A stretch of DNA of 64,000 nucleotides from Usitatibacteraceae bacterium (GCA_044346745.1 JBIIYQ010000001.1:26156-90155), one strand, 5' to 3'; numbered from the stretch's first letter, positions 11,251 to 26,102 are shown. The notes: generated by a model not told the origin, from the letters alone. Made by a program: numbers and translations.

Positions 11251-12048
11251 TTAGTTGGGGAAAAGGGACTCAAAGGCGGCGCCGGGGTCCTCCTCGCGCA
11301 TCAAAGCACCACCGACCAAAAACGTATTGATGTTATTTTTTCTCATGGAATCAACAGCTTGACGGGTCTCAACACCGCTTTCCGTGATCAGAATGCGCGT
11401 TTTGGGAACGAGCGGCGCAAGATTGGTGGTCGTTTCGAGATCAGTCTTGAAACGGGTTAAGTCCCGATTATTGATGCCGATCAGGGGTGTTCTGAGCAAA
11501 AGAGCTTGCTGTAGTTGCGCCGCGGTGTGTGACTCGGCCAACACGTCCAGTCCGAGATCGGTCGCGATATCTTCGAGCCGCAGAAATTCGCTGATTGGCA
11601 GTGCGTCCATGATGAACAACACCGCGTCAGCGCCCATCGTACGGGCTTCGTAAACCTGATAGGCGTCGACGATAAAGTCTTTACGCAACACGGGAATCGT
11701 ACAGGCCACACGAGCGGCGACGAGGTCAGCCGCACTCCCGCCAAAATAATCTTGATCGGTCAGCACCGACAAACATGCCGCGCCATGCGCTTCGTAACTC
11801 GCGGCAAACCGCGCGGGATCAAAATCACCGTCGCGCCGAAACTGCCCTGCCGATGGGCTCTTTTTCTTAATCTCCGCAATCACCGCCGCTTTGCCGACTG
11901 CATGTTTTGCCCGGAGTGCACCAACAAAATCGCGTGTTGGCGGCAGATCAACGATACGCGCTTGAAGAGCCGCGATCGAATCCTGGCGCGCTGCCGCATC
12001 CACCTCGCGGCGTTTTGTCCGAAGAATTTCTTCGAGGATGTTGCTCAT
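11251..12048 (-). CDS. trpC: indole-3-glycerol phosphate synthase
   Basis: 265 aa: ILEEILRTKRREV, VIAEIKKKSPSAG, LSVLTDQDYFGGS, LRKDFIVDAYQVYEAR. Confidence 0.95.
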   Translation of the reverse strand: MSNILEEILRTKRREVDAAARQDSIAALQARIVDLPPTRDFVGALRAKHAVGKAAVIAEIKKKSPSAGQFRRDGDFDPARFAASYEAHGAACLSVLTDQDYFGGSAADLVAARVACTIPVLRKDFIVDAYQVYEARTMGADAVLFIMDALPISEFLRLEDIATDLGLDVLAESHTAAQLQQALLLRTPLIGINNRDLTRFKTDLETTTNLAPLVPKTRILITESGVETRQAVDSMRKNNINTFLVGGALMREEDPGAAFESLFPN

Positions 12049-12053
12049 CTTGT

Positions 12054-13088
12054 TTACAACTCTGGTGCCAGCGCCGTGGTGAAACCCACCAGCTCATCAA
12101 GCTTCTTTCTCGCCAAGCCCGTTTCAATCATTTCACGTGCACGTGAAACGCCACCCCACAGATCATTCGTGATACCCGCGACGTAGATTGCCGCACCGGC
12201 ATTCAGCATTACGATATCCTTGGCCGGTCCCGCCTTGTTGTTGAGAACGTCGAGCAACATTGACTTAGAGGCGTCTGCATCAACAGCCCGAATCGGCTCT
12301 AGTGGTCCTATGTCCAAACCGAACTGTTTTGGCTCGATCGTAAATTCGGTCACAAAACCATGTTTGAGCTCTGCTACCTGCGTTTTACCCGACAGGGTGA
12401 TTTCGTCCAATCCGTCTTCGCCGTGCACCACCATGACATGTTTGGAGCCCAGTTGCTTCAACACACGGGCTTGAATGCCAACCAGGTCAGTGTGAAAAAC
12501 GCCCATCACTTGGTTGGGCGCGCCCGCGGGATTGGTCAGCGGCCCCAAGATATTGAGGATGGTACGCATCCCCAGTTCTTTACGCACTGGTGCCGCGTAT
12601 TTCATCGCCGGGTGATGGCTGGGCGCAAACATAAAGCCGATACCGACCTTTTCAATCGCCTCGGCAACCTGTGCGGGTGTCAAAGTCAGATTCACTCCAA
12701 GCGCCTCCAGCACATCGGCACTTCCTGACTTAGACGATACCGATCGACCGCCGTGTTTCGCAACTTTAGCGCCCGCAGCCGCGGCTACAAATGCCGCGGT
12801 GGTGGAGATATTGAAGGTATGCGCTTTGTCGCCCCCAGTTCCACAAGTGTCAACCAGATGGGTGGTATCACTCACTGCAACCTTTGTCGCAAATTCGCGC
12901 ATTACCTGTGCTGCGGCGGCGATCTCCGACACTGACTCCGACTTCACATGCAGCCCCATCAATATGGCCGACAACTGAACAGGGGTGACCTTGCCTTCCA
13001 TCACTTGGCGAAACAGATCAACCATCTCATCAAAAAAAATCTCACGTTTATCGGAGAGTCGGTTAATGGCTTCTTGCGGTGTAAACAT
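12054..13088 (-). CDS. trpD: anthranilate phosphoribosyltransferase
   Basis: 344 aa: [49 protein letters not shown]. Confidence 0.95.
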
Positions 13089-13110
13089 GGATTACCTTCG
13101 ACTTGTTGGC

Positions 13111-13677
13111 CTAATAGGCGTTCAAAAAGTTGCGGAGCAGACTGTGCCCGTGTTCGGTCATGATCGATTCAGGGTGGAATTGCACGCCCTCAATCGGCAA
13201 AGACTTGTGGCGCACTCCCATGATTTCGCCGTCATCCGTCCAAGCGGTGATTTCGAGGCAATCTGGACATGATTCGCGCTCAATCACCAGCGAGTGATAA
13301 CGCGTCGCTCTGAACGGCGACGGCAACTCGGCAAACACCCCCTGACCGGTATGGCTGACTTGCGAGGTCTTGCCGTGCATCAACGTCTTGGCGTGAATGA
13401 TTTGTCCACCAAAGGCTTGCCCGATGGCCTGATGGCCCAAACAAACACCGAGCAGCGGAATTTTTCCCGCGAATTTCTCGATTGCAGCAACCGATATGCC
13501 GGCTTCACTCGGCGAACACGGTCCTGGTGAAATCACGATCTTGGTCGGCGCCAGCTTCTCGATTTCGCCGAGTGTGACTTCATCGTTGCGTCTCACAACG
13601 ACTTCCTCACCCAACTCGCCAAAATACTGCACGAGGTTGAAGGTGAATGAATCATAGTTATCGATCATTAGCAGCAT
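13111..13677 (-). CDS. trpG: anthranilate synthase component II (glutamine amidotransferase)
   Basis: 188 aa: [40 protein letters not shown]. The first 23 nt of the gene are the attL copy of the island direct repeat. Confidence 0.95.
13655..13677. repeat. attL: 23-nt direct repeat, identical to the trpG start codons
   Basis: TAGTTATCGATCATTAGCAGCAT matches 23464-23486 at 22 of 23 positions. The mismatch is the synonymous CTA/CTC codon. Confidence 0.85.
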
Positions 13678-13696
13678 TTCAAACCTTAACCATTTG

Positions 13697-13725
13697 ATTT
13701 AATTTGATTATTTTTCATTATTCAA
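13697..13725 (-). promoter_or_regulatory. candidate outward-facing sigma70 promoter at the island end, now the nearest promoter for trpGDC
   Basis: The minus strand reads TTGAAT-N17-TTAAAT, ending 19 nt before the trpG ATG (13677). A weak SD (AAGG) sits 6 nt before the ATG. Sequence match only. Confidence 0.3.
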
Positions 13726-13726
13726 T

Positions 13727-13768
13727 GCGGGTTAGTGCTTTGATACCCGCTGAAATACCCGCTTTTTT
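13727..13768 (+). repeat. left copy of a sub-terminal repeat (candidate integrase arm-type sites)
   Basis: GCGGGT-N6-TTGATACCCGC-TGAA-ATACCCGC-TTTTTT. The partner at 23312-23356 reads GCGGGT-N9-TTGATACCCGC-AAAG-ATACCCGC-ATTTTTT in the same orientation. Confidence 0.6.
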
Positions 13769-13990
13769 CGTTGCTAGGCCGGTTCGATCCGGTCAAAACT
13801 AGCAGGCCGGAAGCCCGGCGAAAGAAAAATAAATATTAGGCGATTGGCTTGCGCCAGCGCCAAGAGCGGGAGAGGTTTGAAAGGTTGCTGAGACTCATGC
13901 GCAAATTATTGCACCGTTGACAGCCATCGCCAAGTGCAGCGCATTGTGCGGCAATAGAAATATTCGCGTCGTGCCTGAGAGGTGAAAGCA

Positions 13991-14656
13991 TTAGGTCGGC
14001 GGGGCGGTAGATTCACAGTCCGACAGCTCTAGCATCAAGTCTGCGTGTTCCTCTAGCGTCTCTCTCACGCCGTGCCCTAGGGTAACCAAAAACAGCTGCG
14101 CTCCTTCGCGCCTCGCAAACTTCATAACCGGGACAAAATCGCTATCTCCAGTCACCAGAACGATTACGCTTGCGATTTTCTTTAATACCAATGATGCGAC
14201 GTCAAGACCGATCCGCATATCCACCCCTTTCTGGCCAATAACTGGTTGGATATCGTCTTTAGTAATCTCAATCTTCGCCACTTTTTCGCGTAACTTGTGG
14301 CCCTTAACCTGCCATCCTCGAAACACTGTTTCACCTAACCGCGTGGCAAAGAAAGGATATTTGGTAACGGCCTGAATAAGCTTGTTGTTTCTTATCGCAA
14401 CGTCGGTTACGCCAAAATTGATACGCTCCGCACAAAGCGGCATCTCCTTTGTATCAGTGAAAGGTAAGGCGTCGTAGAAGTAAATCCGGTGGAGAGATTT
14501 TGACCTGAGCGCCGGGTGCGCTTGGAGCTTTTCGGCAAACTCACGAATTTGCTCTGCCGTTGCGGGGTCCTTTGCGGTCCCTAGCTTCCGCTTAAGAAAC
14601 CCACCATCGATGAGGATTGCGTAAGCGGCCATAAAGTGAGAATGGCCACCAAACAC
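13991..14656 (-). CDS. NYN-domain (LabA/PIN-like) predicted ribonuclease, island cargo
   Basis: 221-aa ORF from GTG (SD AAGAG 6 nt upstream); an alternative ATG lies at 14632. NYN-type acidic motifs are present: AILIDGGF, QKGVDMRIGLD and VLVTGDSDFVPVMKFARREG. Confidence 0.8.
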   Translation of the reverse strand: MFGGHSHFMAAYAILIDGGFLKRKLGTAKDPATAEQIREFAEKLQAHPALRSKSLHRIYFYDALPFTDTKEMPLCAERINFGVTDVAIRNNKLIQAVTKYPFFATRLGETVFRGWQVKGHKLREKVAKIEITKDDIQPVIGQKGVDMRIGLDVASLVLKKIASVIVLVTGDSDFVPVMKFARREGAQLFLVTLGHGVRETLEEHADLMLELSDCESTAPPT

Positions 14657-15170
14657 GCGGGGCTCTTAACCCACTTGGATCGTGCGCGAATGGCGGCCGT
14701 TTTTTATTAGGCGCGAAGTGTAACTCAATCTGAATAGCAATGCTATTGAAGTTTTAACCGCGTAAATTTTTTGCAGGTGTTATGCGGCGATCCCTTGAAA
14801 AAATTTCTAACAGGTTCTTGGCATGCTACCAATGTTACGTTGGGTCGCTCAGCCCCAATTCAAATTGAAGAGCCGTAAACCCGGTCTATTTGGCCTGCAT
14901 GCAACTTAGGTTAGGTCACTGAAATTAATAAGGAATTTCCATAAAAACTGCAAATTACAAAATTCCCGTTTTCCTCATAGCTTTACCTTTCTCCGGATTT
15001 CGAAAAAAGCACGAAAAGGGGGATGCATAACGGCCGCTTGCTTGCTATCGTACAAAGCGCTAAAGCTAGGGTAGCGCAGTATGCGACCACTTGCATCGAC
15101 CATTACCCAGTCCAGAGAACGCCTTCGCCAATGGCGTACTTGGCACGAATTCGGGCAGAGAGGCACTAAG

Positions 15171-16025
15171 ATGAGAAAGCAGCTTAAGAAGGCCAGCGAT
15201 ACAGTTTTTCAGCAGCCAAGTGAGGGCAGCGGAAGGCCGCTAGAGTGGCGAAAGAGCCTTCAATTTGTCAATTTCGAAATGTTTAGCGCGACCGCGTCCA
15301 AAATCTACGACGTGAACGATGTTGACGGCTTTGGACAGATTCCCTTTGGCAAGGAAGCTGAAGCCAAAGCAGAACAAGGGCGAATTTTCCCGTTCGTTTC
15401 GCCGAAACCCGCGCGGAAACTAGTCGTCACCGGTCGCGCTAAGTCAAGGGATACCGTCTATACAACGAGCGGAGGCGCGTTTTCCAGCGAACCGCCGGAC
15501 GGCCTGTACTCGCTGGAGCGACCCAAGGATGGCGTTGAGATCCGATTGCAAAGTAATGGCGATTCGCCAGAATCGCACAAGTCCTTTCCAAAAGGCGTTT
15601 TCTTTGGCAATGCGCTGAGGAGTGACGCGGACGAGGGGCGAGATGAACTATGCATAAACTGCCAAATTCCTGAGTCGCAGCTTGCCGAGATTGTCGAAGC
15701 GCTTGCAGTGTCTCCCGACATTGCACTGGAAGTTGGGCTCTCCATCGAAGCTTTTTCATTTGAGGTCGATGATTCACTGCGCGAGTGGTATCAGCCGAGA
15801 GAATTATTCATCCACAGAGTAGCATTCGCGATTGTGCGTTCAGTAGTTGTTAAGCGCGCGCCTGATAATTCAGCAGCGGAAGGGAACATTGACACTAGCG
15901 AGGTTATGCTCGCTGCGCCCGCTCAGCCGGTCACGCCGCCTTTAAGGGAAATCAACAACCCTAAAAGCAGTAATGCGGTGCTATGGGCAATAGCCGTGAT
16001 TTTGCTTCTTCACTTATTTAAGTAG
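15171..16025 (+). CDS. hypothetical tail-anchored protein (284 aa), island cargo
   Basis: The ORF track gives 15081..16025. The ATG at 15171 has GAGAGG 7 nt upstream. It has a single C-terminal TM segment (AVLWAIAVILLLHLFK) and no motif I recognise. Confidence 0.65.
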   Translation: MRKQLKKASDTVFQQPSEGSGRPLEWRKSLQFVNFEMFSATASKIYDVNDVDGFGQIPFGKEAEAKAEQGRIFPFVSPKPARKLVVTGRAKSRDTVYTTSGGAFSSEPPDGLYSLERPKDGVEIRLQSNGDSPESHKSFPKGVFFGNALRSDADEGRDELCINCQIPESQLAEIVEALAVSPDIALEVGLSIEAFSFEVDDSLREWYQPRELFIHRVAFAIVRSVVVKRAPDNSAAEGNIDTSEVMLAAPAQPVTPPLREINNPKSSNAVLWAIAVILLLHLFK

Positions 16026-16108
16026 TTGCGCGGTTCGCAAGCGCAAGCGCCTTGCTAGCCGTTCTCAAAAGAGGCCTTGCTTCTATCGGGTTCAGGATGA
16101 GAGCTCGG

Positions 16109-16537
16109 CTAAAACCAAAACGGACTCCTAATCCAAAGCACCCATTCCAGACCCGGTATGCCGCTGGCTATGACAAATACGTAGCAAAGCAGGGCAATCC
16201 ATAGCACGGCGTTTTCAGCGACCACCCTCGGCCCGTGATATTTCTTCTCAAGGTACGCGATCAAAACTTCCAGACGCTTTCGCCTTGGGTGCTCGTTTGG
16301 CAGTGCGTTTCGCCGCTTCCGCAGTGTACGTAATGTCACCGGAAGATTGGTAAATGCAAACACATACATTGGTAGCACCATGACGAGAGATACGATAGCT
16401 ACCTTACTTGGATTGGCGAATTGCAAACAAGCGAGTGCTGTGGAAAAAGTAAAAATTCCAAATATCCAATTCAACCAATTCGAGTGACTCCTCACTTCTT
16501 CTGCATATTCTGCTTCCGTGGGGCTTATGTAATCCAT
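16109..16537 (-). CDS. hypothetical integral membrane protein (142 aa, about 3 TM), island cargo
   Basis: ATG at 16537 with GGGAGG 7 nt upstream. Hydrophobic segments WLNWIFGIFTFSTALACLQF, VAIVSLVMVLPMYVFAFT and AVLWIALLCYVFVIASGIPGL are separated by a basic loop, RTLRKRRNALPNEHPRRKR. Confidence 0.7.
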   Translation of the reverse strand: MDYISPTEAEYAEEVRSHSNWLNWIFGIFTFSTALACLQFANPSKVAIVSLVMVLPMYVFAFTNLPVTLRTLRKRRNALPNEHPRRKRLEVLIAYLEKKYHGPRVVAENAVLWIALLCYVFVIASGIPGLEWVLWIRSPFWF

Positions 16538-16575
16538 AACAATTCCTCCCAATCTACGGGCGTGGATGTGCGTGT

Positions 16576-16761
16576 TTAACGCAGGCTCTTTAGCAACTTA
16601 GCGACAGATTTTAACAATCCTCTAACGCTCCCCTTATAAGCGTTCTGCGATACCTTTGCTTTTCCCTCTGGCGTTCGTGCGCCGGTGGATCGCTCCCACG
16701 GTTTCCACTTGTGAATTAGTTGCGCCTGCCGTTGCCGCTCCTCTGCTGTCCACTGTCTCAT
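16576..16761 (-). CDS. small basic hypothetical protein (61 aa), island cargo
   Basis: MRQWTAEERQRQAQLIHKWKPWERSTGARTPEGKAKVSQNAYKGSVRGLL... with SD AAGGA 8 nt upstream. It lies 38 nt upstream of the membrane protein gene. I have a vague recollection of similar small KPWxxSTG..T.EGKA proteins in proteobacterial mobile DNA, which I could not verify. Confidence 0.5.
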   Translation of the reverse strand: MRQWTAEERQRQAQLIHKWKPWERSTGARTPEGKAKVSQNAYKGSVRGLLKSVAKLLKSLR

Positions 16762-16943
16762 GCGTCAATTCCTTTAATAGTTCGTTTGGCTTGTTTTCTT
16801 TTTTCTCCGCGTGCGTACTGCTCACAAAACGCTATGTGGCCTTCCGGGTTCAATCGAACCACCTCGGCAAAATCACCTCCACAAATTTGCACTTGAGCCA
16901 ACTTGGTGAGCAGGGGGAAACTACTTCTATCGTAACCAACCAA
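16758..16943 (-). CDS. possible small ORF (61 aa, TTG start) overlapping the next gene by ATGA
   Basis: The 4-nt overlap with 16576..16761 suggests coupling. However, the only possible start is TTG with a weak SD. It might instead be the 3' part of a frameshifted gene together with 16850..17059. Confidence 0.3.
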   Translation of the reverse strand: MVGYDRSSFPLLTKLAQVQICGGDFAEVVRLNPEGHIAFCEQYARGEKRKQAKRTIKGIDA

Positions 16944-17082
16944 TAGAAGGTCTCACCATGAACATCGAAATCGCCGCTTGTCTGCCACTCTTTCTCGTCT
17001 TTTTTGTCGCTAAGGGCGGTAACATTCTGACTATCAAATGTCCCGTAACAATTATCCAAAGAACCGTCAAACAGGAGAGGGT

Positions 17083-17466
17083 ATGCAAAAAATAACCGCC
17101 GGGCTCATAGCGTTCACATTACTAAGTAGTACCGCCCCTGTTTTTGCCAAGGTAATCACTCTAGATTGTGAATTCGTCATAGAGGCCAACAACAAATTTC
17201 GCGCTGATTTAACTATGGACACAGCAAACCAGACCGCAAGCGCAACAAGAAAGGACAGAAAAGGGGAACCGTTCACGTTGGCCGGCAAACTTTTTACAGA
17301 CGGATCGCAATACTGGTTCACTGGGAAAAGCGACGCCACTACCAACAAGTATCAAATCGACAGGAATAACCTAAAGGCGATTTTTTCGCAGGATCTTGGC
17401 GGATTCATTCCGAAACCAATACAAGGCCAGTGCGAAGTAGTCGAAAAAGCGCAGCCGAAGATTTGA
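17083..17466 (+). CDS. hypothetical secreted protein (127 aa), island cargo
   Basis: The ORF track gives 17038..17466. The ATG at 17083 has AGGAGAGG upstream. Signal peptide MQKITAGLIAFTLLSSTAPVFA-KV. No recognisable domain. Confidence 0.7.
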   Translation: MQKITAGLIAFTLLSSTAPVFAKVITLDCEFVIEANNKFRADLTMDTANQTASATRKDRKGEPFTLAGKLFTDGSQYWFTGKSDATTNKYQIDRNNLKAIFSQDLGGFIPKPIQGQCEVVEKAQPKI

Positions 17467-17517
17467 GTCTATTGATGGGCTGCCTCTAAGATTCAACGGC
17501 AGAGTCTCAACATTTCG

Positions 17518-18105
17518 CTACTTTCGTTGCGTCTGAGGGATTTCCGCTCTCGCGTGCGCGTACTTCTTAGAGGATGCCGATTGATCCGCGTGCGAGGGTG
17601 CGCCGTTGTTCACTTGTTGATGCCCTTGCGCGATGTTTGCCTGCTTCACGAATGCAATAGCCTTAGGGTTTTTCATTTCCGCGAGCGCCTCTAATGCCAT
17701 CCTGCTTTGGCTTTGCGCCCTTAACGCCAGTCTGAAGTGCGTCTCAAATTGTGGGATTTGGCTTTGCCCCATGCCTGAGCGTGTGAAGTGATAAAAGAGC
17801 GCCTCTAGTGTTTGGGCTTGCCCTAGTAGCATTGCCTAAGGCTGGCTCATATCCCCAGCGCCCACGGTCTTAGCTTGCGCCCTCAGCACGTCCACAAGTG
17901 CGTTAACGTCTAGCCATTCGTTAGGATCAATCTTTTGCATCGCCATTGCCGCACCTGCTGTGGTGTTGGTAATTTGCGCCGCGATTGTTTGGTATAGCTT
18001 GGGATCGTTTTCTTTGACTTTGATATTGAGCGCCTCGCGTGTTGCCTTGTCTCTTAACTGCGGTTTACCGTCTGCCGGTGTTTGTTTCGTTTGCTTTGTT
18101 GCCAT
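17518..18105 (-). pseudogene. island backbone gene split by one in-frame TAG (89 aa + stop + Ala + 104 aa)
   Basis: ORFs 17836..18105 and 17518..17832 are in the same frame. They are separated only by TAG (17838-17836) and GCA, and the junction reads ...GAGDMSQP*AMLLGQAQTLEALFYHF... Confidence 0.55.
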
Positions 18106-18107
18106 CG

Positions 18108-18404
18108 TTAGATTCCTTTAATTTGTTTCGCCATGCTGCGGTAAGTCTCGATTGCTGCCGCCATGTCACCCGCTGCCGCTTCTCGTATCTCTGCATATTC
18201 GTGCGCTGGCGTGTCGTAAGCTGGCGCAACGATTGAAAGCAGCGCCTCAAATTCCTGCCGCTTGAGTTCGTCAACGATTTGGACTTTCTGCGTTTTGATC
18301 GCTGACCGTAGTGAATCGCTAAGCGTGCCAATGGCTCGCACGTTGTCACCGTCCGCCAATTCCAGCCGGATGCCGCGCCGTGTGAATTGTTCGACCGCAC
18401 CCAT
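18108..18404 (-). CDS. hypothetical protein (98 aa) translationally coupled to the primase-helicase
   Basis: The ORF track gives 18108..18473. The ATG at 18404-18402 overlaps the primase TGA (18406-18404) by one base. Sequence MGAVEQFTRRGIRLELADGDNVRAIGTLSDSLRSAIKTQKVQIVDELKRQ... Confidence 0.6.
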   Translation of the reverse strand: MGAVEQFTRRGIRLELADGDNVRAIGTLSDSLRSAIKTQKVQIVDELKRQEFEALLSIVAPAYDTPAHEYAEIREAAAGDMAAAIETYRSMAKQIKGI

Positions 18405-20497
18405 CAAAGCACCTCGCCAATCTGGGGTTGCGCTCCATTCGTGCCATATGTGCCAAGATTTTCCATATGGCATTTATTGGCATGATTGGCACGATTGACG
18501 GTTTCGACCTCGATTGGCAGTTTCCAGATACTCCGCTTTGACTTACCAAAGCCGGTCATCGTGGCAACGATTCCCAGCCGTCCGCGAGCACGTTGAATAG
18601 TCCGCTCAGAAAATCCGGCACCTTTGGCCAGCAGCATGACGTTCTGCTTATCAAGCTGCCCGCCTTCCTCGGTGAGAATTTCTTTTAGCCATTCGGACGT
18701 ATCGGACAATGCGCCGCCCTCGTCGTCGGCCATCTCCGCCGTGGCCAGCATCTCGCGTGCGCTGCCTGCCATCTCGTCACCCCAGACAACATAAGATGCA
18801 ATGACGCCGCGATGTTCTTGTAATTCGGCTTGGTGTAGGTCATAACTAAACCCGCCGTCATCCTGGCCTATGTTCGACTTGGCACGCGCCAGCATTCGGG
18901 TTGCCTCGCCCTCCTGAGGCTCACGCTTTTTTGCTGCGACCAAAACAACCCGCGCCAGCGCTGCAAATGCGATTGAACCCGTCACCCGTTCAACAGGATC
19001 GCTGCCGCCCGTTCCTTTGGTGAAGTGCGTAATACCTAACACCGCACAGTTAAGCGCCGTTCCTAATTCAACCAAAGGCTGTAAACACCGCCGCGTCTCT
19101 GCGTTGTTGTGGGAGTTACCCGCAACCGCTGACACAATCGGATCAACTATCAACAACCGCACGTTCCCAATCTTGTGCGCTGCCTCTGTTAGCCGTTGCA
19201 TATCCGTTGCGGGATCGAAAGGCAACTCTCCGCCGCTGCCGTTAGTGTTGCCAACAAAGAAAACGCGCCCACGATTGCCGCCGGACAGAATCAGGCGAGG
19301 GACTAGCGTATTGGCTGGGTCATCCTCGCCCGACCATATCAGCACGTTACCGGCTTCCGCCGTTGTGCCATCTGGCCAACGTCCGCCGCTTGATAGGGTT
19401 GCGGCCATTGCAATGGCGAGGGTGGTTTTACCGGTTCCCGGTGCGCCGCCTAGCAAGTGAAACTTACCCGCCGCCAGCCAGCCATTCCAAAGCCATTCGA
19501 TTGGTTCGGGGTGAATCTCGGTCGCCGGAATCAAAGCAACGTAACGCCCTCGCGCCATATCGTCGTTAGAAGCCGTAAAGCTAGCCGCTTGGTATGTTTC
19601 CCTTGCCGGAATAGTCGCGGCCTCTATCGCAGCTTTAACCGCCTCCGCGCCGCTATGCGTTGCGAGGTCGTTAAAGTCGGTCGCACCCTCTGGCCTTGTT
19701 TCCCCAAAATCAGGAAGTGCGAGCCTCGCACCAATCGCCAGCGCTGCCGCCCTTGATTTAGTTAGGCCGGTTGGATCAAGTTCGCCACATAGGATGATTG
19801 GCATATCTGGCAACTTCGCACGCATGGCGAGTGCAACGGCCTCAAGGTTTCCGGCGTTGAATGCCACCGCAACGGGATAGCCGGTTATCTCGTGAAGGGT
19901 CGCACCGGTAGCGAAGCCCTCAGCAATGCAAAGCGCCGCCGCTCCCTTTGTTGTGCCGATACTGAAATACCCGCCAGCTACTCTGCCATCAGTGAGGAAG
20001 CGCTTAGTGCCATCGTCGCCGATAAATTGCGCCGAGTGAATATCTGCACCCTCTCGGACAGCAATCACTAGCGCACCGTTATGCAACTTAGCGCCATGCG
20101 GTTTGATGCCCTTGCGGACTAGATAGGCGTGGTCGCTAGGCGCTGGCGTTGCGGCCTGCCAGATTGATACTGCCTTGGCTGCCGCCTCGCTTTGGCGTTG
20201 CTTTCGCTCTGCCTCAGCACTTGCCCTCGCCTCTGCAATTTGGCGATTTAATGCCTCGCGTTCTGCCGGGGTGAATGGTGCGGATCGCGCCGCCTGCCAA
20301 CTGGCGTTAAGGTCGTTAGACCAATCACCATAGACGCCGCCTAAGCCATCGGCAAACATCCTGCACCATCCCGCCTCGTTTCCTTTTCCTTTATCAATGC
20401 CGGGGAATCGGTGAAGCGTACCGGGTTCGATTGCATCCGGCGGAGCAAGCCCCGCCGCCCGCATTGCGTTGCGGAATTCGTTGATGTTGTTCAGCAT
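18404..20497 (-). CDS. bifunctional primase-helicase-like replication protein (N-terminal Toprim primase region + RecA-fold/RepA-like ATPase)
   Basis: The ATG at 20497 has GGAGGG upstream (MLNNINEFRNAMRAAGL...). The Toprim-like segment is LCIAEGFATGATLHEITGYPVAVAFNAGNL ... ILCGELD. Walker A is LLGGAPGTGKTTLAIAMAA, with VLIWSGEDD and LLIVDPIVS as Walker B/RecA-like strands. A basic C-terminal tail may be an HTH. Confidence 0.85.
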   Translation of the reverse strand: MLNNINEFRNAMRAAGLAPPDAIEPGTLHRFPGIDKGKGNEAGWCRMFADGLGGVYGDWSNDLNASWQAARSAPFTPAEREALNRQIAEARASAEAERKQRQSEAAAKAVSIWQAATPAPSDHAYLVRKGIKPHGAKLHNGALVIAVREGADIHSAQFIGDDGTKRFLTDGRVAGGYFSIGTTKGAAALCIAEGFATGATLHEITGYPVAVAFNAGNLEAVALAMRAKLPDMPIILCGELDPTGLTKSRAAALAIGARLALPDFGETRPEGATDFNDLATHSGAEAVKAAIEAATIPARETYQAASFTASNDDMARGRYVALIPATEIHPEPIEWLWNGWLAAGKFHLLGGAPGTGKTTLAIAMAATLSSGGRWPDGTTAEAGNVLIWSGEDDPANTLVPRLILSGGNRGRVFFVGNTNGSGGELPFDPATDMQRLTEAAHKIGNVRLLIVDPIVSAVAGNSHNNAETRRCLQPLVELGTALNCAVLGITHFTKGTGGSDPVERVTGSIAFAALARVVLVAAKKREPQEGEATRMLARAKSNIGQDDGGFSYDLHQAELQEHRGVIASYVVWGDEMAGSAREMLATAEMADDEGGALSDTSEWLKEILTEEGGQLDKQNVMLLAKGAGFSERTIQRARGRLGIVATMTGFGKSKRSIWKLPIEVETVNRANHANKCHMENLGTYGTNGAQPQIGEVL

Positions 20498-20632
20498 TAG
20501 CGCCCTCCGAATACTCGGAGTACAGCTAAGCCAATGCAGCAAGCCGCCTGCCGCCAAAGGTTGCGCGATGATGCGTGAGCCTGCCGCAATTCCTCAAGGT
20601 TGTAAGCCCACTGCCATAAAACGAGGTCGAGC

Positions 20633-20950
20633 CTATACATGGTCGGCCTCCGAAACGTACTCGTTAGCGAGCCAATAGCGCCGCACCCTCAAGCGTGTTT
20701 CACTGAGGCGACTTTCCCGCAACGTCTGCCAGCTTGTGCGGACTGGTAACTCATCGCATAGCCTTGCGAGGGTGCCGAGCAATTCCGGCCTATCCTCTGG
20801 CTTGAAGTCGATTACTCGGAGATCGCGCCCCGATTGCAGCGTCGCCTTAATCGCTTCATAATCAGGTTTGCTTTGCATTAAGTTTGAAGTACTCGCGCCG
20901 GGTTGCCCCCCGGCGTTTCCTTTTGTGGAGTTCGTGAGGCCGCGCTTCAT
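20633..20950 (-). CDS. hypothetical protein (105 aa), ATGA-coupled to alpA
   Basis: The start ATG overlaps the alpA stop. No recognisable domain. Confidence 0.55.
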   Translation of the reverse strand: MKRGLTNSTKGNAGGQPGASTSNLMQSKPDYEAIKATLQSGRDLRVIDFKPEDRPELLGTLARLCDELPVRTSWQTLRESRLSETRLRVRRYWLANEYVSEADHV

Positions 20951-21156
20951 ACTGCACCCCCCGCCGCTTCAATGCGCGATTCGATCCAGCTATTTATTGC
21001 TTCTGAATCCCATGCGACGGCGCGTCCGTTTTTGCTCAGCTTGATAGGCGACGGGAATTCGCCGCTTTTTACTTTCGAGTAGATCGCACTGCGACCTAGT
21101 CCGACTTGGTGCTTTACTTCATGTAGGCGCATGAAGCGCCGTGTGGTTGATTGCAT
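20947..21156 (-). CDS. alpA: AlpA-family (MerR-type HTH) transcriptional regulator/excisionase
   Basis: 69 aa: RRFMRLHEVKHQVGLGRSAIYSKVKSGEFPSPIKLSKNGRAVAWDSEAINSWIESR. SD AAGGA 6 nt upstream. Confidence 0.85.
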   Translation of the reverse strand: MQSTTRRFMRLHEVKHQVGLGRSAIYSKVKSGEFPSPIKLSKNGRAVAWDSEAINSWIESRIEAAGGAV

Positions 21157-21248
21157 CGCTGATCCTTTTAGAGAATTACAACGCTGCGAATCGTATTTCT
21201 TTGGACTATATGTCCGCGAGCAAAGAAAGGCGGATTCTAAAGTGCCAT

Positions 21249-21962
21249 TTATTTTTTCCGTTGGGCTTTCTTGGCGATTCGCTCAATGGTTTTGGCTCGT
21301 TCAGAAGGTAGTGCGCATTCGGGGTCGTGAAAGAACGCAGCTAGTCCGGTGTAGCTTTTGGGGATCAGCCGGGCGTCCCGCAATGCCACTTCAACGAATG
21401 CCCTTTCGCTTTGCTCTCGCGGCGACAGCGTTTCAAACGCACCTTGTTTTTCTCTTGGCGAATTCTCCCCTCGATATCCTTTTTGGAAAGCTAGCCGCAA
21501 TTCCAGTACGGTCTTTTTAAGCGCAGTGCTTTTTCGTGCTCCCTTAGGGTTAGGGATTGCCTTGTATTCCTCTGCCGCTTTATAGGCCGCGTTGGTTAAT
21601 TTGAACAGCACTTGCTCCGCTTCATTTAGATCGACACCGCGCTTTGTGAGCGCCTCGCTGTAATACCCGCTGATTTTAGTGATGTTCTCCAGAAGGGACT
21701 CGGCAGACTTCCACATAGGGTCAAACTTGGCGACGTAGTCGCTAGGATATGGAGCGTGGTCAACGTGTTTTTCCGCGACGGGTTGGAAGCCTAGCCATTG
21801 TTCTACGTCTAATAGTGCTAAATCTTGCGCCTCGCATTGCTCGCTTGTATCGCTGGGAAGCACCCCCAATAGTTCCCTTAGCACTTGTCTTGCGCCATCG
21901 CTCAGGCGATGCGCGTGAGCGATGAAAGTGGGTTCTGCTTCGCTAGGCTTTCGCGTTTTCAT
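21249..21962 (-). CDS. hypothetical protein (237 aa) directly downstream of the integrase
   Basis: SD GAAGGG 5 nt upstream and a 21-nt gap after int. No motif recognised. Confidence 0.6.
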   Translation of the reverse strand: MKTRKPSEAEPTFIAHAHRLSDGARQVLRELLGVLPSDTSEQCEAQDLALLDVEQWLGFQPVAEKHVDHAPYPSDYVAKFDPMWKSAESLLENITKISGYYSEALTKRGVDLNEAEQVLFKLTNAAYKAAEEYKAIPNPKGARKSTALKKTVLELRLAFQKGYRGENSPREKQGAFETLSPREQSERAFVEVALRDARLIPKSYTGLAAFFHDPECALPSERAKTIERIAKKAQRKK

Positions 21963-21983
21963 ATGCGCCCTTCAAAGATTCAG

Positions 21984-23309
21984 TTATGCCGCTTGTTTCG
22001 CCTTGATTGGCGTTACGTTGGAATCTTTCGCCGCCATTGAGTCAATCAAGTTAGCCCAATCCTGCATCATCGTTATCCGCTCAGGCAAATACTCCGCCCG
22101 GTTGTATGCGTTGCGTACAGCGTTTCTTTCCTTGTGCGCTAACTGGCGCTCGATAACATCTGGGCGATAGTTCAATTCGTTTAGCAGCGTTGATGCCGTT
22201 GTCCGCCAGCCATACTGCGAAAACAGCCCCGCATAGCCCATGCGCTCTAGCACTCGGTTAAGCGTTGTTAGAGAAATACACTTTTCGGGATCGCGTTGAT
22301 TCGGGAAAAGAAACTTCTGTCCGCCGGTGAATTTCTTGAGTTCGGTTAGCAGGGCGATAGCCTGAGCGCTGAGCGGTACGATATGCGCCTCCCGCATTTT
22401 CATCCGATGCGCTGGCACATCCCAGCGAGCGCCCTCAAGGTCAAACTCGCTCCATTCGGCTTGGCGTAACTCGCTAGGCCGCACAAAGGTAAGCGATAAC
22501 AGCCGCATACAAATAACCGTTTGCCGATAGCCGCCATACTCGGACAGCTTTTTCATAAAGTCTGGGAAGTCGGTTTTCTCTAGCGGTTTCTTGTGCTGAA
22601 CCTTAGGCCGCTTAATCGCCCCCTTGAGCGCTGCCGCCGGATCGTGATCCGCCATTAGCTTAGTTACAGCAAACCGGAAAATGGCGCTGAGCCATTGGCG
22701 CATTAAGATCGCCAGCGAGGGTGCGCCGCGTTTTTCCATTCTTTCGATGATCGCCAGCAAGTGCGCTGCCGTAATTGATCGCATAGGCATAAAGCCAATA
22801 TGCCGGTATGCGTCTAACTCAAGGTTACGCTCCACTTGGTGCAAATAGGTACCCGACCAATGATCGCGATTGCGCTCGATCCAAGCCTTAGCCACGGCCT
22901 CAAAGTTATTGGCGTTTTCCGTTGTCCTAGCGAGTTCTACCGCCCTGCGATTGTGCGAGGGGTGAATGCCCTGCTTCACCATGCTACGGCACCTATCGCG
23001 CTCTGTACGCGCCTCAGCGAGGGTGAATACATGACGGTTGCGCCGCTCTGCCGCTGCCGCCTCCATTGCCTCCTGAGCGGCCTTTAGTGCCTCTGGGGAT
23101 AGCTTGGTCTTTGGCGCTTTCTCATCGTCGCCGGGTTTGCCGTACTCGCCAATGGCGAAAACGTTTTCTTTCCCGTTGATCCGGTACCGATAGCGCCAGA
23201 GTTTCGAGCCACTAGGCCGCACCTCAAGATAAAGCCCCTTTTCGTCGGTTAGCTTTTGGGGTTTGTCGCCAGCCTTTGCAGCTTCAATTTCTGAGGTCGT
23301 GAGTGCCAT
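21984..23309 (-). CDS. int: tyrosine recombinase, P4/CP4-57 integrase family (N-terminal arm-binding domain)
   Basis: The ORF track gives 21984..23351. I prefer the ATG at 23309: MALTTSEIEAAKAGDKPQKLTDEKGLYLEVRPSGSKLWRYRYRINGKENVFAIGEY. The C-terminal catalytic region has HGWRTTASTLLNE and the final ...LAHKERNAVRNAYNRAEY (H-x-x-R ... Y). Confidence 0.9.
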   Translation of the reverse strand: MALTTSEIEAAKAGDKPQKLTDEKGLYLEVRPSGSKLWRYRYRINGKENVFAIGEYGKPGDDEKAPKTKLSPEALKAAQEAMEAAAAERRNRHVFTLAEARTERDRCRSMVKQGIHPSHNRRAVELARTTENANNFEAVAKAWIERNRDHWSGTYLHQVERNLELDAYRHIGFMPMRSITAAHLLAIIERMEKRGAPSLAILMRQWLSAIFRFAVTKLMADHDPAAALKGAIKRPKVQHKKPLEKTDFPDFMKKLSEYGGYRQTVICMRLLSLTFVRPSELRQAEWSEFDLEGARWDVPAHRMKMREAHIVPLSAQAIALLTELKKFTGGQKFLFPNQRDPEKCISLTTLNRVLERMGYAGLFSQYGWRTTASTLLNELNYRPDVIERQLAHKERNAVRNAYNRAEYLPERITMMQDWANLIDSMAAKDSNVTPIKAKQAA

Positions 23310-23311
23310 TT

Positions 23312-23356
23312 GCGGGTACCGGTGAATTGATACCCGCAAAGATACCCGCATTTTTT
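23312..23356 (+). repeat. right copy of the sub-terminal repeat, immediately upstream of the int start
   Basis: GCGGGT-N9-TTGATACCCGC-AAAG-ATACCCGC-ATTTTTT. See 13727-13768. Confidence 0.6.
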
Positions 23357-23463
23357 GTGGATTGCAACGGACTAATGCGGCCTACATCGGCGCATAACTA
23401 TCTGTATTTTATTGTTATTTTCAGCTCTTCCGGCTTGCTTTGGACTAATCCGGTTAAAGGTAT

Positions 23464-23486
23464 TAGTTATCGATCATGAGCAGCAT
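23464..23486. repeat. attR: 23-nt direct repeat, an orphaned trpG start (MLLMIDN-stop)
   Basis: The minus strand reads ATGCTGCTCATGATCGATAACTAA, 2 nt after the ltaE stop codon. The SD AGGAG lies inside the ltaE 3' end. Confidence 0.85.
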
Positions 23487-23488
23487 CG

Positions 23489-24514
23489 CTAGCTCCTTTG
23501 CCGGCCACGATAGAAGGCCGCGAACACATCAACAACGCGCTCTACATCGGCTGCGCTGATGTCGAGGTGCGTGACGATTCTGGTGCGGGGACCGACAATG
23601 GCAACAATACTGTTTTGATGCAGGTGGGCTTTGAGCGCCGCAACGTCTGTTGAGGGCACATCAACAAACAATATATTTGTCTGCGGCATCTGCACGGTCA
23701 GGGGGCGAATCTGCGCCAAGGCCGCGGCAAGTTGTGAGGCGTTCTTGTGGTCGTCTTCTAGGCGTTGCACATGATGATCCAATGCATAGTCGCAGGCCGC
23801 AGCAAGGATTCCCACCTGCCGCATGCCGCCGCCGAGCATTTTTCGATGCCGCTGTGCGCGTTTGATCAGCGCCTTTGTTCCACAGAGCACCGAACCTGCG
23901 GGTGTGCCGAGCCCCTTCGACAAACACACGGAGACAGAATCAAAGTAACTGCAAACATCTTTGGCGCTGCGCTGTGTCTTTACGACCGCATTAAATAGCC
24001 GCGCCCCGTCGAGATGCATGCCAAGCGAGTGCGCTTTTGCAAAGGCACTCACCTCTGCCATGTAAGTCTCGGGAATCACCATGCCGCCAATGGTATTTTC
24101 CAATGCGATGAGCCGTGTGATCGCAAAGTGTGAATCGTCGGGCTTCACCGCCGCCCGAATTTTTTCGATGGGTATCGTTCCGTCCGCAGCGTTTTCAATT
24201 GGCTGCGGTTGAATCGAGCCAAGCACGGCGGCACCGCCACCTTCGTACTTGTAGGTATGTGCATTCTGGCCAACGATGTATTCCTCGCCGCGCGCACAAT
24301 GGGCCATCAATGCGCAGAGGTTGCTCTGTGTGCCGGACGGCATAAACAGCCCGGCCTCCATGCCTACCATGTCGGCCATTTTTTCTTGCAAGGCATTCAC
24401 GGTGGGATCGTCACCAAACACGTCATCACCCACTTCTGCGCTGGCCATCACGGCACGCATTGCCGCAGTTGGCCGCGTGACCGTGTCGCTTCTAAGATCA
24501 ATTTTTTTCATCAT
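23489..24514 (-). CDS. ltaE: low-specificity L-threonine aldolase
   Basis: 341 aa, collinear with E. coli LtaE: IDLRSDTVTRPT, GDDVFGDDPTVNALQ, GEEYIVGQNAHTYKYEGGGAAVLGSIQPQPI, CLSKGLGTPAGSVL, RKMLGGGMRQVGILAAA. Confidence 0.9.
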   Translation of the reverse strand: MMKKIDLRSDTVTRPTAAMRAVMASAEVGDDVFGDDPTVNALQEKMADMVGMEAGLFMPSGTQSNLCALMAHCARGEEYIVGQNAHTYKYEGGGAAVLGSIQPQPIENAADGTIPIEKIRAAVKPDDSHFAITRLIALENTIGGMVIPETYMAEVSAFAKAHSLGMHLDGARLFNAVVKTQRSAKDVCSYFDSVSVCLSKGLGTPAGSVLCGTKALIKRAQRHRKMLGGGMRQVGILAAACDYALDHHVQRLEDDHKNASQLAAALAQIRPLTVQMPQTNILFVDVPSTDVAALKAHLHQNSIVAIVGPRTRIVTHLDISAADVERVVDVFAAFYRGRQRS

Positions 24515-24527
24515 CTGGTCCTCGAAA

Positions 24528-26036
24528 CTAGCTGGTCATGTCCAAGCCGGTGGCAACCATTTCCGCGGCGCGGAGCAGCGCTCTTGCTTTGTTTTCGGTC
24601 TCCTGCCATTCGAGCTCGGGCACAGAATCTGCGACGATTCCCGCAGCCGCTTGAGCATACAGCACACCGTCTTTAACGACACCGGTTCGAATGGCGATTG
24701 CTAGATCAAGATTGCCATTGAAGCCAAGGTATCCGGCCGCACCGGCATAGATGCCCCGCTTCGACGGTTCAAGCTCGTCGATGATTTCCATGGCGCGCAC
24801 TTTTGTTGTGCCCGTCACGGTGCCCGCGGGAAAGGTCGCTCGCAACAAATCAATCGGGCCGACGTCGTCTCGTATCTTGCCGTCAACATTAGAAACGAGG
24901 TGCATCACATGTGAGTAACGTTCGACCACATATTGCTCGGTGACATTTACGCTGCCGATTTTTGCGATGCGGCCCAAATCATTGCGACCGAGATCGATCA
25001 GCATCAAGTGTTCCGCGAGTTCCTTCGGATCTGCGAGCAGTTCTGCCTCGAGGGCCGCGTCGAGTTCGGGGGACGCGCCGCGTTTCCGTGTACCGGCAAT
25101 CGGCCTGACCGTGACTTTTTCGCCCTCTTGCCGGACCAATATTTCCGGGGATGCACCGACGATGTGGAATTCACCCATGTCGAAATAAAACATGTAAGGC
25201 GAGGGATTGATGGAGCGTAAGGCGCGATATAAGTTAATCGGCGGCGCGTCGTAGGGCTGCGAAATTCGCTGCGAAATCTGCACCTGCATGATGTCGCCGT
25301 CCACGATGTACTGTTTGGAGCGCTCCACCGCCTTCAGGAATCGCTCCTTGCCGATTTCCGACTTCGGCTCATGTTTCCGTCCAGATGGAACATAGACCGG
25401 CAGTGGTGCTTGGCTACGCAGCTGCATCCTGAGTTCTGTCAGGCGACGCTGTGCATTTTCAAAAGCGTTTTCGATGCCGGGGTCTGCGTAGACGATCATC
25501 GTCAACCGACCCGAGAGGTTATCCACCACCGCCAGTTCGTCAGACAACATCAAGACGATATCCGGTGTGCCTAGTGCATCCGGCTTTGCGACAAACTTGT
25601 CATCGAGATGTTTGGCGAGTTTGGGCTCGATATAGCGCACCGTGTCGTAGCCGAAGTAACCAGCCAATCCGCCAGCGAATCGCAGCGCCCCCTCGATCGG
25701 AGCCGCACGAAATCGCGCCTGATACTTTTCGATGAACGCCAGCGGGTCTTCAACAAATTTGTGTTCGGCCCTTTCAGCAGTACCACCGGTCTTTGCGCGG
25801 AGCACCGTGACTTCACGGCCGCGAACTTCCAGCCACTCCCGCGCAGGCAAACCGATGATCGAGTAACGACCAAAGCGCTCGCCGCCAATCACTGACTCCA
25901 ACAAATAGGAGTGTGGCTTATTGGCTAGTTTCAAATAAATCGAAAGAGGCGTATCGAGATCTGCAAAGGTCTCGAGCGTGACGGGGATTCGGTTGTAGCC
26001 TTCAACGGCGAGGCGCTGAAACTGGGCTTCGTTCAT
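24528..26036 (-). CDS. trpE: anthranilate synthase component I
   Basis: The ORF track starts at a TTG (26060). The ATG at 26036 gives MNEAQFQRLAVEGYNRIPV..., typical of TrpE. Motifs include LLESVIGGERFGRYS and GAAGYLGFNGNLDLAIAIRT. Confidence 0.95.
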   Translation of the reverse strand: MNEAQFQRLAVEGYNRIPVTLETFADLDTPLSIYLKLANKPHSYLLESVIGGERFGRYSIIGLPAREWLEVRGREVTVLRAKTGGTAERAEHKFVEDPLAFIEKYQARFRAAPIEGALRFAGGLAGYFGYDTVRYIEPKLAKHLDDKFVAKPDALGTPDIVLMLSDELAVVDNLSGRLTMIVYADPGIENAFENAQRRLTELRMQLRSQAPLPVYVPSGRKHEPKSEIGKERFLKAVERSKQYIVDGDIMQVQISQRISQPYDAPPINLYRALRSINPSPYMFYFDMGEFHIVGASPEILVRQEGEKVTVRPIAGTRKRGASPELDAALEAELLADPKELAEHLMLIDLGRNDLGRIAKIGSVNVTEQYVVERYSHVMHLVSNVDGKIRDDVGPIDLLRATFPAGTVTGTTKVRAMEIIDELEPSKRGIYAGAAGYLGFNGNLDLAIAIRTGVVKDGVLYAQAAAGIVADSVPELEWQETENKARALLRAAEMVATGLDMTS

Positions 26037-26102
26037 GAGGTTCTCGACAAAGACAATCAAACAAATGGCACGACAACGACAGCAATAATATGGCGCGTGA
26101 TT

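Follow-up and report, generated by a model that had tools for sequence, protein, structure and literature searches.

A 9.8-kb integrative element at the trpG start of a Usitatibacteraceae bacterium and the P4-family integrase clade that targets this site

The 64,000-nucleotide stretch of a Usitatibacteraceae bacterium genome analysed here (GCA_044346745.1, JBIIYQ010000001.1:26156-90155; hereafter the window, from whose first letter all positions are counted) holds a tryptophan operon that is cut in two. The upstream half, ltaE (23489-24514) and trpE (24528-26060), and the downstream half, trpG (13111-13677), trpD (12054-13088) and trpC (11251-12048), both lie on the minus strand (23489-26060 and 11251-13677, respectively) and are separated by an integrative element of 9.8 kb (13678-23463; core-to-core distance 9,809 bp) whose integrase gene, int, is oriented like the operon. 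The element is bounded by a 23-nucleotide (nt) direct repeat, TAGTTATCGATCAT[T/G]AGCAGCAT; exactly two copies occur in the window, identical at 22 of 23 positions, while the number expected by chance is none (100 shuffles). Read on the minus strand, the repeat is ATGCTGCT[A/C]ATGATCGATAACTA and encodes MLLMIDN, the single mismatch falling in a synonymous CTA/CTC codon. The left copy (attL core, 13655-13677, minus strand) is the working trpG start: it opens a 188-amino-acid (aa) class-I glutamine amidotransferase open reading frame (ORF; 13111-13677; Pfam GATase, E=1.2e-62) with trpD and trpC downstream. The right copy (attR core, 23464-23486, minus strand) sits 2 nt past the ltaE stop codon and 7 nt behind an AGGAG, and runs into TAA after seven codons; the result is an orphaned trpG start, the ORF MLLMIDN-TAA, which spans 23463-23486. 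The repeat, its synonymous mismatch and the roles of its two copies are thus as an earlier reading of the sequence (the original prediction) had described them.

If the element did enter trpG at its first codons, the uninterrupted gene should still exist in close relatives. A look-up with the exact TrpG protein finds it in 10 independent contigs from different metagenomes: the empty site reads ltaE-TAG-CG-ATGCTGCTCATGATCGATAACTA-TGATTCA, verbatim as the original prediction had spelled it out, and its junction is ...AAAGGAGCTAGCG ATGCTGCTCATGATCGATAACTA TGATTCATTC... The genes trpE-ltaE-trpG-trpD-trpC are contiguous in all 10 contigs, which match the window flanks at 99.3-100% identity over up to 9.3 and 10.6 kb; the flank alignments stop at 23464 and 13677, the 23-nt core being covered by both. 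Copies of attB, naive or repaired, are thus abundant. The mismatch within the core marks the origin of each copy: the allele is C at the chromosomal site, attB, C at attR and A at attL, which identifies the orphan as the host-derived trpG start and the left copy as an element-derived start fused to the host rest of trpG. Because the host allele C is kept at attR and attL has A, the crossover lay 3' of nucleotide 9; because attL carries the element allele, it is the element that supplies the Shine-Dalgarno sequence and ATG of the working trpG, along with at least 9 nt. Site-specific integration with a replacement 5' end, as originally proposed, is borne out by the empty site and this allele pattern.

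The occupied allele, with an element 99.95% identical and the same attL, recurs in at least seven samples, one of which (3300042946) holds both an empty (L083) and an occupied (L097) allele, and the TrpG proteins of occupied and empty alleles are identical. The insertion is thus recent, strain-variable and site-specific. It shares the marks of islands that restore the 5' end of their target gene (dusA/prfC type): the direct repeats correspond to the gene 5' end, the frame is intact and the empty site exists in close relatives. In two occupied-allele contigs (L180:1208 and L181:1311), the gene caller starts TrpG at Met4 (185 aa), not at Met1; such a call would fit an element-borne ribosome-binding site that is weaker or has another spacing.

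The integrase gene (21984-23309, minus strand) encodes 441 aa and starts at 23309, not at 23351, as judged from homologue lengths. Its product is 37.2% identical to P4 Int over 96% of its length and has the three domains of that family: Arm-DNA-bind_3 (E=1.4e-20), Phage_int_M (1.3e-25) and Phage_integrase (2e-16). The attachment sites are also of the P4 kind. On the P arm (23312-23349, minus strand), tandem arm-type sites GCGGGTATC lie at 23329-23337 and 23341-23349, 115-135 nt from the core, and an inverted copy, GCGGGTACC (23312-23320, plus strand), lies 2 nt ahead of the int ATG, which is itself 155 nt away from the core. On the P' arm (13727-13762, minus strand), tandem GCGGGTAT(C/T) sites at 13742-13750 and 13754-13762, 65-85 nt from the core, are accompanied by a degenerate inverted copy (13727-13734). 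The annotated P4 attP record has tandem arm repeats 54-77 nt before a 20-bp core and again 113-136 nt after it, and an inverted repeat over its int start, which is 152 nt away; in both systems the core is succeeded by RTCC-rich spacers. Three things set the two apart: the core of the window element mimics the trpG 5' end (codons 1-8), whereas the P4 core is a tRNA 3' end; the arm repeat is GCGGGTAT in the former and GGGGGCAT in the latter; and psu, delta, sid, epsilon and the P4-type alpha protein are not found in the window element. The attP geometry, together with the 37% Int identity, marks this as a P4-type recombination module whose core was swapped from a tRNA 3' end to the trpG 5' end.

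The P'-arm arrangement is kept in all nine complete elements aligned (146 nt upstream of trpG), and a motif, ATCAAnAGGTTA, adjoins the core in this alignment. Its counterpart in the window, AATCAAATGGTTA (13687-13699, minus strand), would be a site for integration host factor (IHF), as it agrees with the IHF consensus WATCAANNNNTTR. This motif contains AAGG, which may be the replacement Shine-Dalgarno sequence for trpG; related elements have ATCAAnAGGTT 9 nt before the ATG. The arm-type motif GCGGGTATY occurs 10 times in the window (0.52 expected), four of these copies being the arm-site pairs; the others, at 749, 4993, 12171, 19966, 21662 and 62578, may be accounted for by codon usage (GAT-ACC-CGC).

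P4-family integrases classically target the 3' end of tRNA or tmRNA genes. Here the integrase domains, the similarity to P4 Int, the tandem repeats on both arms and the repeat at the int start are all of the family, and the target is the trpG 5' end instead; no tRNA gene lies within the window, where no Rfam family is found either. Is this an aberrant landing of one integrase, or the habit of a group? A scan of a genome collection with an alignment of 27 homologues finds at least 546 stretches that encode a relative, of which the best 79 loci (47-88% identity) were kept. Of these 79, 48 have trpE upstream on the same strand, at a distance of no more than 10 kb, and the trpE -> int orientation is constant in every locus. 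Sufficient upstream DNA for an orphan-start search is present in 76 loci (48-88% identity); in 63 of them an orphan ATGCTGCTGATGATCGA (at most four mismatches) precedes the int ATG by 171-297 nt, the window and nearly all the others falling between 171 and 198 nt. A tRNA gene within 1.5 kb of int is seen in none of the 76. At five more loci the orphan start lies farther upstream; in four of them (L064, L066, L067 and L069) it directly follows trpE and int comes 3.1-5.7 kb farther downstream, so that other genes or a remnant must lie between the attachment site and int. The flanks of integrase homologues, which the original prediction had named as a check, therefore display orphaned trpG starts and not tRNA genes, the reverse of the outcome that would speak against it. 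Its remark that the target is unusual holds for the P4 family overall but not within the integrase's own large clade, where trpG is the rule; given at least 546 relatives, the trpG target is not rare in nature.

The clade spans Beta-, Gamma- and Alphaproteobacteria and a Geobacteraceae metagenome-assembled genome (MAG). Its hosts include Usitatibacteraceae (the closest among the best 79 loci, at 87-88%), Thiobacillus, Thauera, Azoarcus, Rhodanobacter, Xanthomonas and Stenotrophomonas, as well as Pseudomonas, Oceanimonas, Pectobacterium, Hyphomicrobiales and Rhodobacter. Eight further complete elements measure 6.0-9.9 kb and have direct repeats of 17-22 nt starting at the ATG. At one locus, two related elements stand in tandem at trpG (L005:9823 and L005:17262), each with its own orphan start and integrase; islands thus accrete at trpG as they do at tRNA genes. 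The paralogue pabA is hit as well: in Pectobacterium sp. B2J-2 a 9.8-kb clade element (L013:9820-20164) interrupts pabA (NF005271, 408 bits against a cut-off of 340), and the int DNA of this element has no match among 5,426 E. coli genomes. Loci without an upstream trpE, such as those of Oceanimonas (L015 and L034), may be additional pabA cases.

The same target recurs in IMG/VR, in which integrases at 44-57% identity have an orphan trpG start 173-193 nt upstream; relatives at 40% identity or less lie beside tRNA-Leu, -Gly, -Met or -Arg genes or tmRNA, and therefore provide an internal positive control for the tRNA search. A neighbor-joining tree with P4 Int as its root gathers all 81 trpG-labelled integrases into a single clade of 123 leaves, most other members of which lack upstream sequence, and five of the six tRNA/tmRNA-associated integrases fall outside it. 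Genomic context, orphan starts, complete elements, IMG/VR and the tree all tie the integrases to a single site across taxa, and the insertion architecture recurs in more than 80 loci from isolates and MAGs: a large integrase clade targets the conserved 5' end of trpG/pabA-type amidotransferase genes.

How might the exchange proceed? A 23-bp attP core, a mimic of trpG codons 1-8, recombined with the chromosomal trpG start serving as attB, and the N-terminal arm-binding domain of the integrase would bind the arm-type repeats GCGGGTAT; the inverted arm copy at the int start probably serves int autoregulation. Strand exchange 3' of nt 9 would most likely take place inside ATGATCGA: in other elements the two repeats stay identical as far as nt 17-22, apart from one pair with a difference at nt 15, and these limits, together with the nt-9 boundary, probably put the overlap region there. 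Integration stranded the host Shine-Dalgarno sequence and ATG at attR as the seven-codon orphan ORF ahead of int, and joined the element leader, ATG and first codons to trpG at attL, leaving TrpG unchanged. Excision would require Int and an AlpA-type factor, and the excised attP junction would read ...GGTTAAGGTTTGAA-ATGCTGCT(A)ATGATCGATAACTA-ATACCTTTAACCGG...; the circle could then be replicated by the Toprim/AAA_25 primase-helicase that the element encodes.

The position of the insertion also bears on expression of the operon. Only 2 nt separate ltaE from trpG in the empty site, which implies that the two are co-transcribed there, and insertion widens this gap to 9.8 kb. All backbone genes and the last two cargo ORFs follow the operon direction, and the stretch from the orphan ORF to int shows no terminator-like site. 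Because the element lies in line (trpE-ltaE -> int ... -> trpGDC), trpGDC would have to be transcribed from or through it; as far as sequence can tell, it is plausible that transcripts from the trp promoter run on into int and that trpGDC depend on transcription of the element. The sole trpG-facing promoter candidate is a weak sigma-70-like site (13933-13905, matching at 9 of 12 positions), followed by a weak hairpin (13817-13803). NCBIfam scores the window TrpG as a shared aminodeoxychorismate/anthranilate synthase component II, a dual role that would account for strong selection in favor of elements that mend the gene they enter. In the window lineage, ltaE is native to the position between trpE and trpG; an aldolase-like gene (25% identity) occupies the same position in Pseudoxanthomonas (L036), and ltaE flanks this slot in Xanthomonas arboricola too (PMC4686621). 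The operon before insertion was therefore trpE-ltaE-trpGDC.

Between the repeats lie, as predicted, an integrase, an AlpA protein, a Toprim primase-helicase and several hypothetical genes, each of the named functions being supported by domain searches. Contiguous with int is orf237 (21249-21962, minus strand), whose place in the order corresponds to 'iolg/icg' of PICMI satellites, an analogy by position alone. Next come alpA (20947-21156, minus strand), an AlpA-family helix-turn-helix gene (PF05930, E=1.9e-14) whose product is, judging by its family, a probable excision/directionality factor and regulator; orf105 (20633-20950, minus strand), which overlaps alpA by 4 nt; the primase-helicase gene (18404-20497, minus strand; 697 aa as called in sister copies), with Toprim_3 and AAA_25 domains and a PHROG DNA primase match; and orf98 (18108-18404, minus strand). 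They are followed by a conserved backbone gene of 195 aa (17518-18105, minus strand), which an amber TAG at 17836-17838 splits into orf89 and orf104; in L097, a sister copy of 99.95% identity, the codon is GAG and the gene intact, and the homologue in L004 is a single ORF of 229 aa. The 195-aa protein has 314 homologues, every one annotated as 'hypothetical' and devoid of Pfam domains; its AlphaFold model is helical (predicted local distance difference test score, pLDDT, 68.6), and Foldseek searches against PDB and BFVD return nothing at E<=0.001. A small conserved gene, orf61 (16576-16761, minus strand), has homologues that come after the 195-aa-family gene in L004, L005, L006 and L012.

The remainder is an AT-richer cargo region (13991-17466) of four ORFs or ORF groups: orf142 (17038-17466, plus strand), with a signal-peptide-like N-terminus; orf142b (16109-16537, minus strand); orf284/314 (15081-16025, plus strand); and a NYN-domain gene (13991-14632, minus strand), the last gene of the element. 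The cargo half (13678-17500) has a GC content of 49.1%, compared with 54.4% for 17501-23463 and 54-54.5% for the flanks, in keeping with the compositional difference noted originally. Pfam and PHROG searches of all element ORFs of at least 50 aa find no capsid, tail, terminase, lysis, relaxase or type IV secretion system (T4SS) family, so the predicted lack of capsid, tail and terminase genes also stands. A search of the cargo for defense functions with PADLOC returns a weak NYN match and nothing else. Known phages have no DNA match to the element, and the best phage integrase is 42% identical.

It is very probable that the 9.8-kb element was inserted into the trpG start by its own P4-family integrase. 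Several observations weigh against this account or its extensions: (i) exact-pattern scans of metagenome and viral collections found neither an attP nor an attR junction, a weak negative because the metagenome scan also missed the contig L097, which is known to hold attR; (ii) all six contigs that were read from the NYN gene in search of a circular form show attL or end short of the junction; (iii) the amber codon interrupts one conserved backbone gene in the window copy; (iv) the Pfam and PHROG searches reveal no hijacking, packaging, relaxase or helper-phage genes in the element; (v) a consensus scan for an outward promoter that could serve trpG gives 3 sites against 8.2 expected, none of them convincing; and (vi) the neighbor-joining tree has no support values and takes its target labels from a motif search, and is thus indicative only.

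What, then, moves the element between cells? The order of its co-oriented genes, int - contiguous gene - alpA - overlapping small gene - primase - small genes, recurs in PICMI and in Gram-negative phage-inducible chromosomal islands (PICIs), which are likewise small and devoid of structural or lysis genes (PMC10803314, PMC10085698). Transfer would most likely be by a helper phage, as for satellites with a PICMI or Type C PICI layout. The match is partial. Unlike PICMI, the window element has a Toprim_3 + AAA_25 primase without DUF3987/DUF5906, does not lie beside fis and has no known helper phage; of the PICMI set (int, alpA, DUF3987/DUF5906 primase, fis site), int and alpA are present. A related element, L004, encodes PriCT_2 + Toprim + DUF3987. 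The P4-like model of SatelliteFinder calls for at least five of seven components (int, psu, delta, sid, alpA, epsilon, alpha), of which int and alpA alone are found; its PICI model has five core components, which comprise packaging or capsid-redirection genes besides int, alpA and a primase/replicase and of which Type A or B needs at least four; the element with three corresponds to 'Type C', a class that its authors regard as inconclusive, possibly made up of satellites, defective elements or other mobile elements (PMC10085698). Neither the virion structural and lysis genes of a prophage nor the relaxase and T4SS of an integrative and conjugative element (ICE) are seen in any ORF of at least 50 aa. 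The resemblance to phage satellites that was originally suggested thus holds at the level of int, alpA and primase only, with a gene set of inconclusive type and hijacking genes not found; by analogy, the element is a candidate satellite-like island. It is for the transfer step alone that conjugative mobilization and decay compete seriously with this view.

Instead of a satellite, the element could be an integrative mobilizable element or a plasmid-like island, with conjugation or natural transformation as its means of transfer. The combination of Int, AlpA and primase is not diagnostic of satellites (PMC10085698), nor are Toprim + AAA_25 replication proteins specific to them; the cargo of the clade is very varied, the larger islands carrying type I restriction-modification (R-M) systems, AbiEii-like ATPases, TonB receptors, efflux pumps and rhamnose/lipopolysaccharide (LPS) genes; and an ICE, ICESh95, has been reported 'at the gene pabA', where it inserts via a unique int/xis module. 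This reading is nonetheless unlikely: relaxase, coupling-protein and T4SS families have no match in any element ORF, the co-oriented int - gene - alpA - gene - primase series is the PICMI/Gram-negative PICI order, and among the sister elements L003, 6.0 kb long, has a gene for a Dit-like phage tail protein (L003:5018-5728; PF21821, E=4e-32), a possible hint of phage dependence.

A decaying, immobile remnant, fixed in part of the population, is a still less probable description. The amber mutation in a conserved backbone gene, the failure of the scans to detect attP and the one-position difference between the direct repeats would all fit it, but int, alpA, the primase-helicase and both sets of arm sites are intact, the backbone gene is whole in the sister copy L097, the lone repeat mismatch is the original attP/attB difference and not a product of decay, and the presence of the element varies among strains whose flanks are 99.3-100% identical, even inside one sample. 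MAGs can be chimeric, but an assembly artefact or a chance duplication is effectively refuted, as both junctions recur in independent assemblies from at least seven samples, no 23-mer match is expected by chance and the same architecture is seen in over 80 isolate and MAG loci.

Among described systems, a close parallel to the trpG elements is offered by the dusA-associated islands (Farrugia et al., 2015; PMC4482086), which likewise depend on a dedicated family of tyrosine integrases with a single site at the 5' end of a housekeeping gene, are thought to restore that gene upon integration, and range in cargo from islands to prophages, the integrase being their sole universal feature. The same can be said of the integrase of the trpG clade, given how varied its cargo is. 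Both groups also strike paralogues at lower frequency: dusB and dusC in one case (PMC4482086), pabA in the other. The trpG elements differ in having a trpG/pabA target, a clear P4-family integrase with a P4-type attP and a site inside an operon, upstream of three biosynthetic genes; and excision of dusA islands has been demonstrated by polymerase chain reaction (PMC4482086), whereas the window element is known from sequence alone. SXT, too, enters an essential gene, prfC, at its 5' end, and the hybrid gene that results is functional (PMC7251087). SXT/R391 elements and ICESh95 are conjugative and about 100 kb long, unlike the window element, although pabA, the reported ICESh95 site, is also struck by the clade in Pectobacterium; the published int and xis primers of ICESh95 match no locus analysed here. 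The literature searched, which did not extend to the TIGER/Islander target lists (these may list trpG), contains no description of an integrase clade specific for the trpG or pabA start, of its att site or of a link to the hot spot discussed below. Taken singly, the window element is an ordinary small island; what makes it of interest is that a whole clade of the P4 family has switched target. A broadly conserved, tRNA-like landing pad, used in at least three classes of proteobacteria, would be provided by the opening codons of trpG/pabA-type amidotransferases (M-L-L-M-I-D-N-Y). Synthesis of tryptophan, and possibly of folate, by the host may rely on element transcription, with an integrase placed downstream of the trp promoter, and an integrase with a short attB present in many bacteria might be turned into a genome-engineering tool.

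The slot between trpE and trpG is already known as a gathering place for other elements. R/F pyocins and other tailocins lie between these two genes in Pseudomonas, one paper noting that an integrase is absent; in X. arboricola the space from ltaE to trpG is taken up by an hrp cluster or a type I R-M island, and the clade integrase occurs at this slot in X. arboricola (L042) and X. cannabis (L029). The tailocin and hrp clusters occupy the same chromosomal slot as the window element but are fixed and lack an integrase and repeats. IMG/VR contains 38 trpG-start loci (among L185-L243) without an integrase in the DNA examined, most of them in virus-like regions of 10-22 kb; the two inspected, L195 and L218, carry baseplate, tail-fiber, tape-measure and lysis genes and abut an intact trpG, and none of these loci extends to trpE, so that the trpE-proximal end of the clusters lies beyond them. 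In these integrase-less regions the leader motif ATCAAnAGGTT stands 9 nt ahead of the ATG, as it does at the attL of intact elements. Of 36 distinct intact trpG starts downstream of an element or tail cluster, 29 have this motif at a distance of 9-10 nt from the ATG; among orphan starts the figure is 17 of 128, and the true empty site lacks it. Intact trpG in tail-only regions and the orphan starts of newly inserted prophages are preceded by one and the same host sequence. On this sequence evidence, the tail-only clusters resemble tailocins with an old attL junction, which suggests a link to the trpE-trpG tailocin hot spot.

The tailocin clusters would then descend from clade elements as the remains of prophages that lost their integrase. 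A reading that joins these strands can be offered tentatively, with rather less than even confidence: the hot spot would be the attB of an undescribed P4-family clade that switched from tRNA ends to trpG/pabA codons, the tailocins would be integrase-less myovirus fossils, and the elements would insert in line with the trp operon, such that int and alpA receive trp read-through and trpGDC rely on the element. If so, the activity of mobile elements would be linked to tryptophan and folate metabolism, and the gathering of unrelated tailocins, prophages, defense islands and pathogenicity clusters between trpE and trpG would be explained. Fossil prophages should also have left traces: a decayed orphan start, ATGYTGCTGATGATCGA, is expected after trpE/ltaE, and a decayed GCGGGTAT near trpG.

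Members of the clade range from int-alpA-primase islands of 6-10 kb to myovirus prophages of 40-60 kb. At the small end, close relatives in Usitatibacteraceae-like hosts have int-alpA-primase at trpE-ltaE plus HigB/HigA; in L090-L093, whose Int is 90% identical, this toxin-antitoxin pair lies between int and alpA (at about 11630-12214). Thiobacillus elements have the 195-aa-family gene and orf61 in common with the window and a PriCT_2-Toprim-DUF3987 primase. At the large end, the IMG/VR proviruses L103 and L107 (44-48 kb) have myovirus baseplate and tail-fiber genes beside int, and L103 starts exactly at the orphan start. A trpG-start scan of IMG/VR yields 21 int-bearing loci, most in proviruses of 40-60 kb, with integrases 42-47% identical and most with GCGGGTAT repeats; eight such proviruses of 40-60 kb at the trpG start (L191, L198, L200, L216, L220, L225, L233 and L238), inserted behind the host sequence found ahead of intact trpG in tail-only regions, have integrases at 43-46% and GCGGGTAT arms, and in L238 an expanded run of ATACCCGC repeats precedes int.

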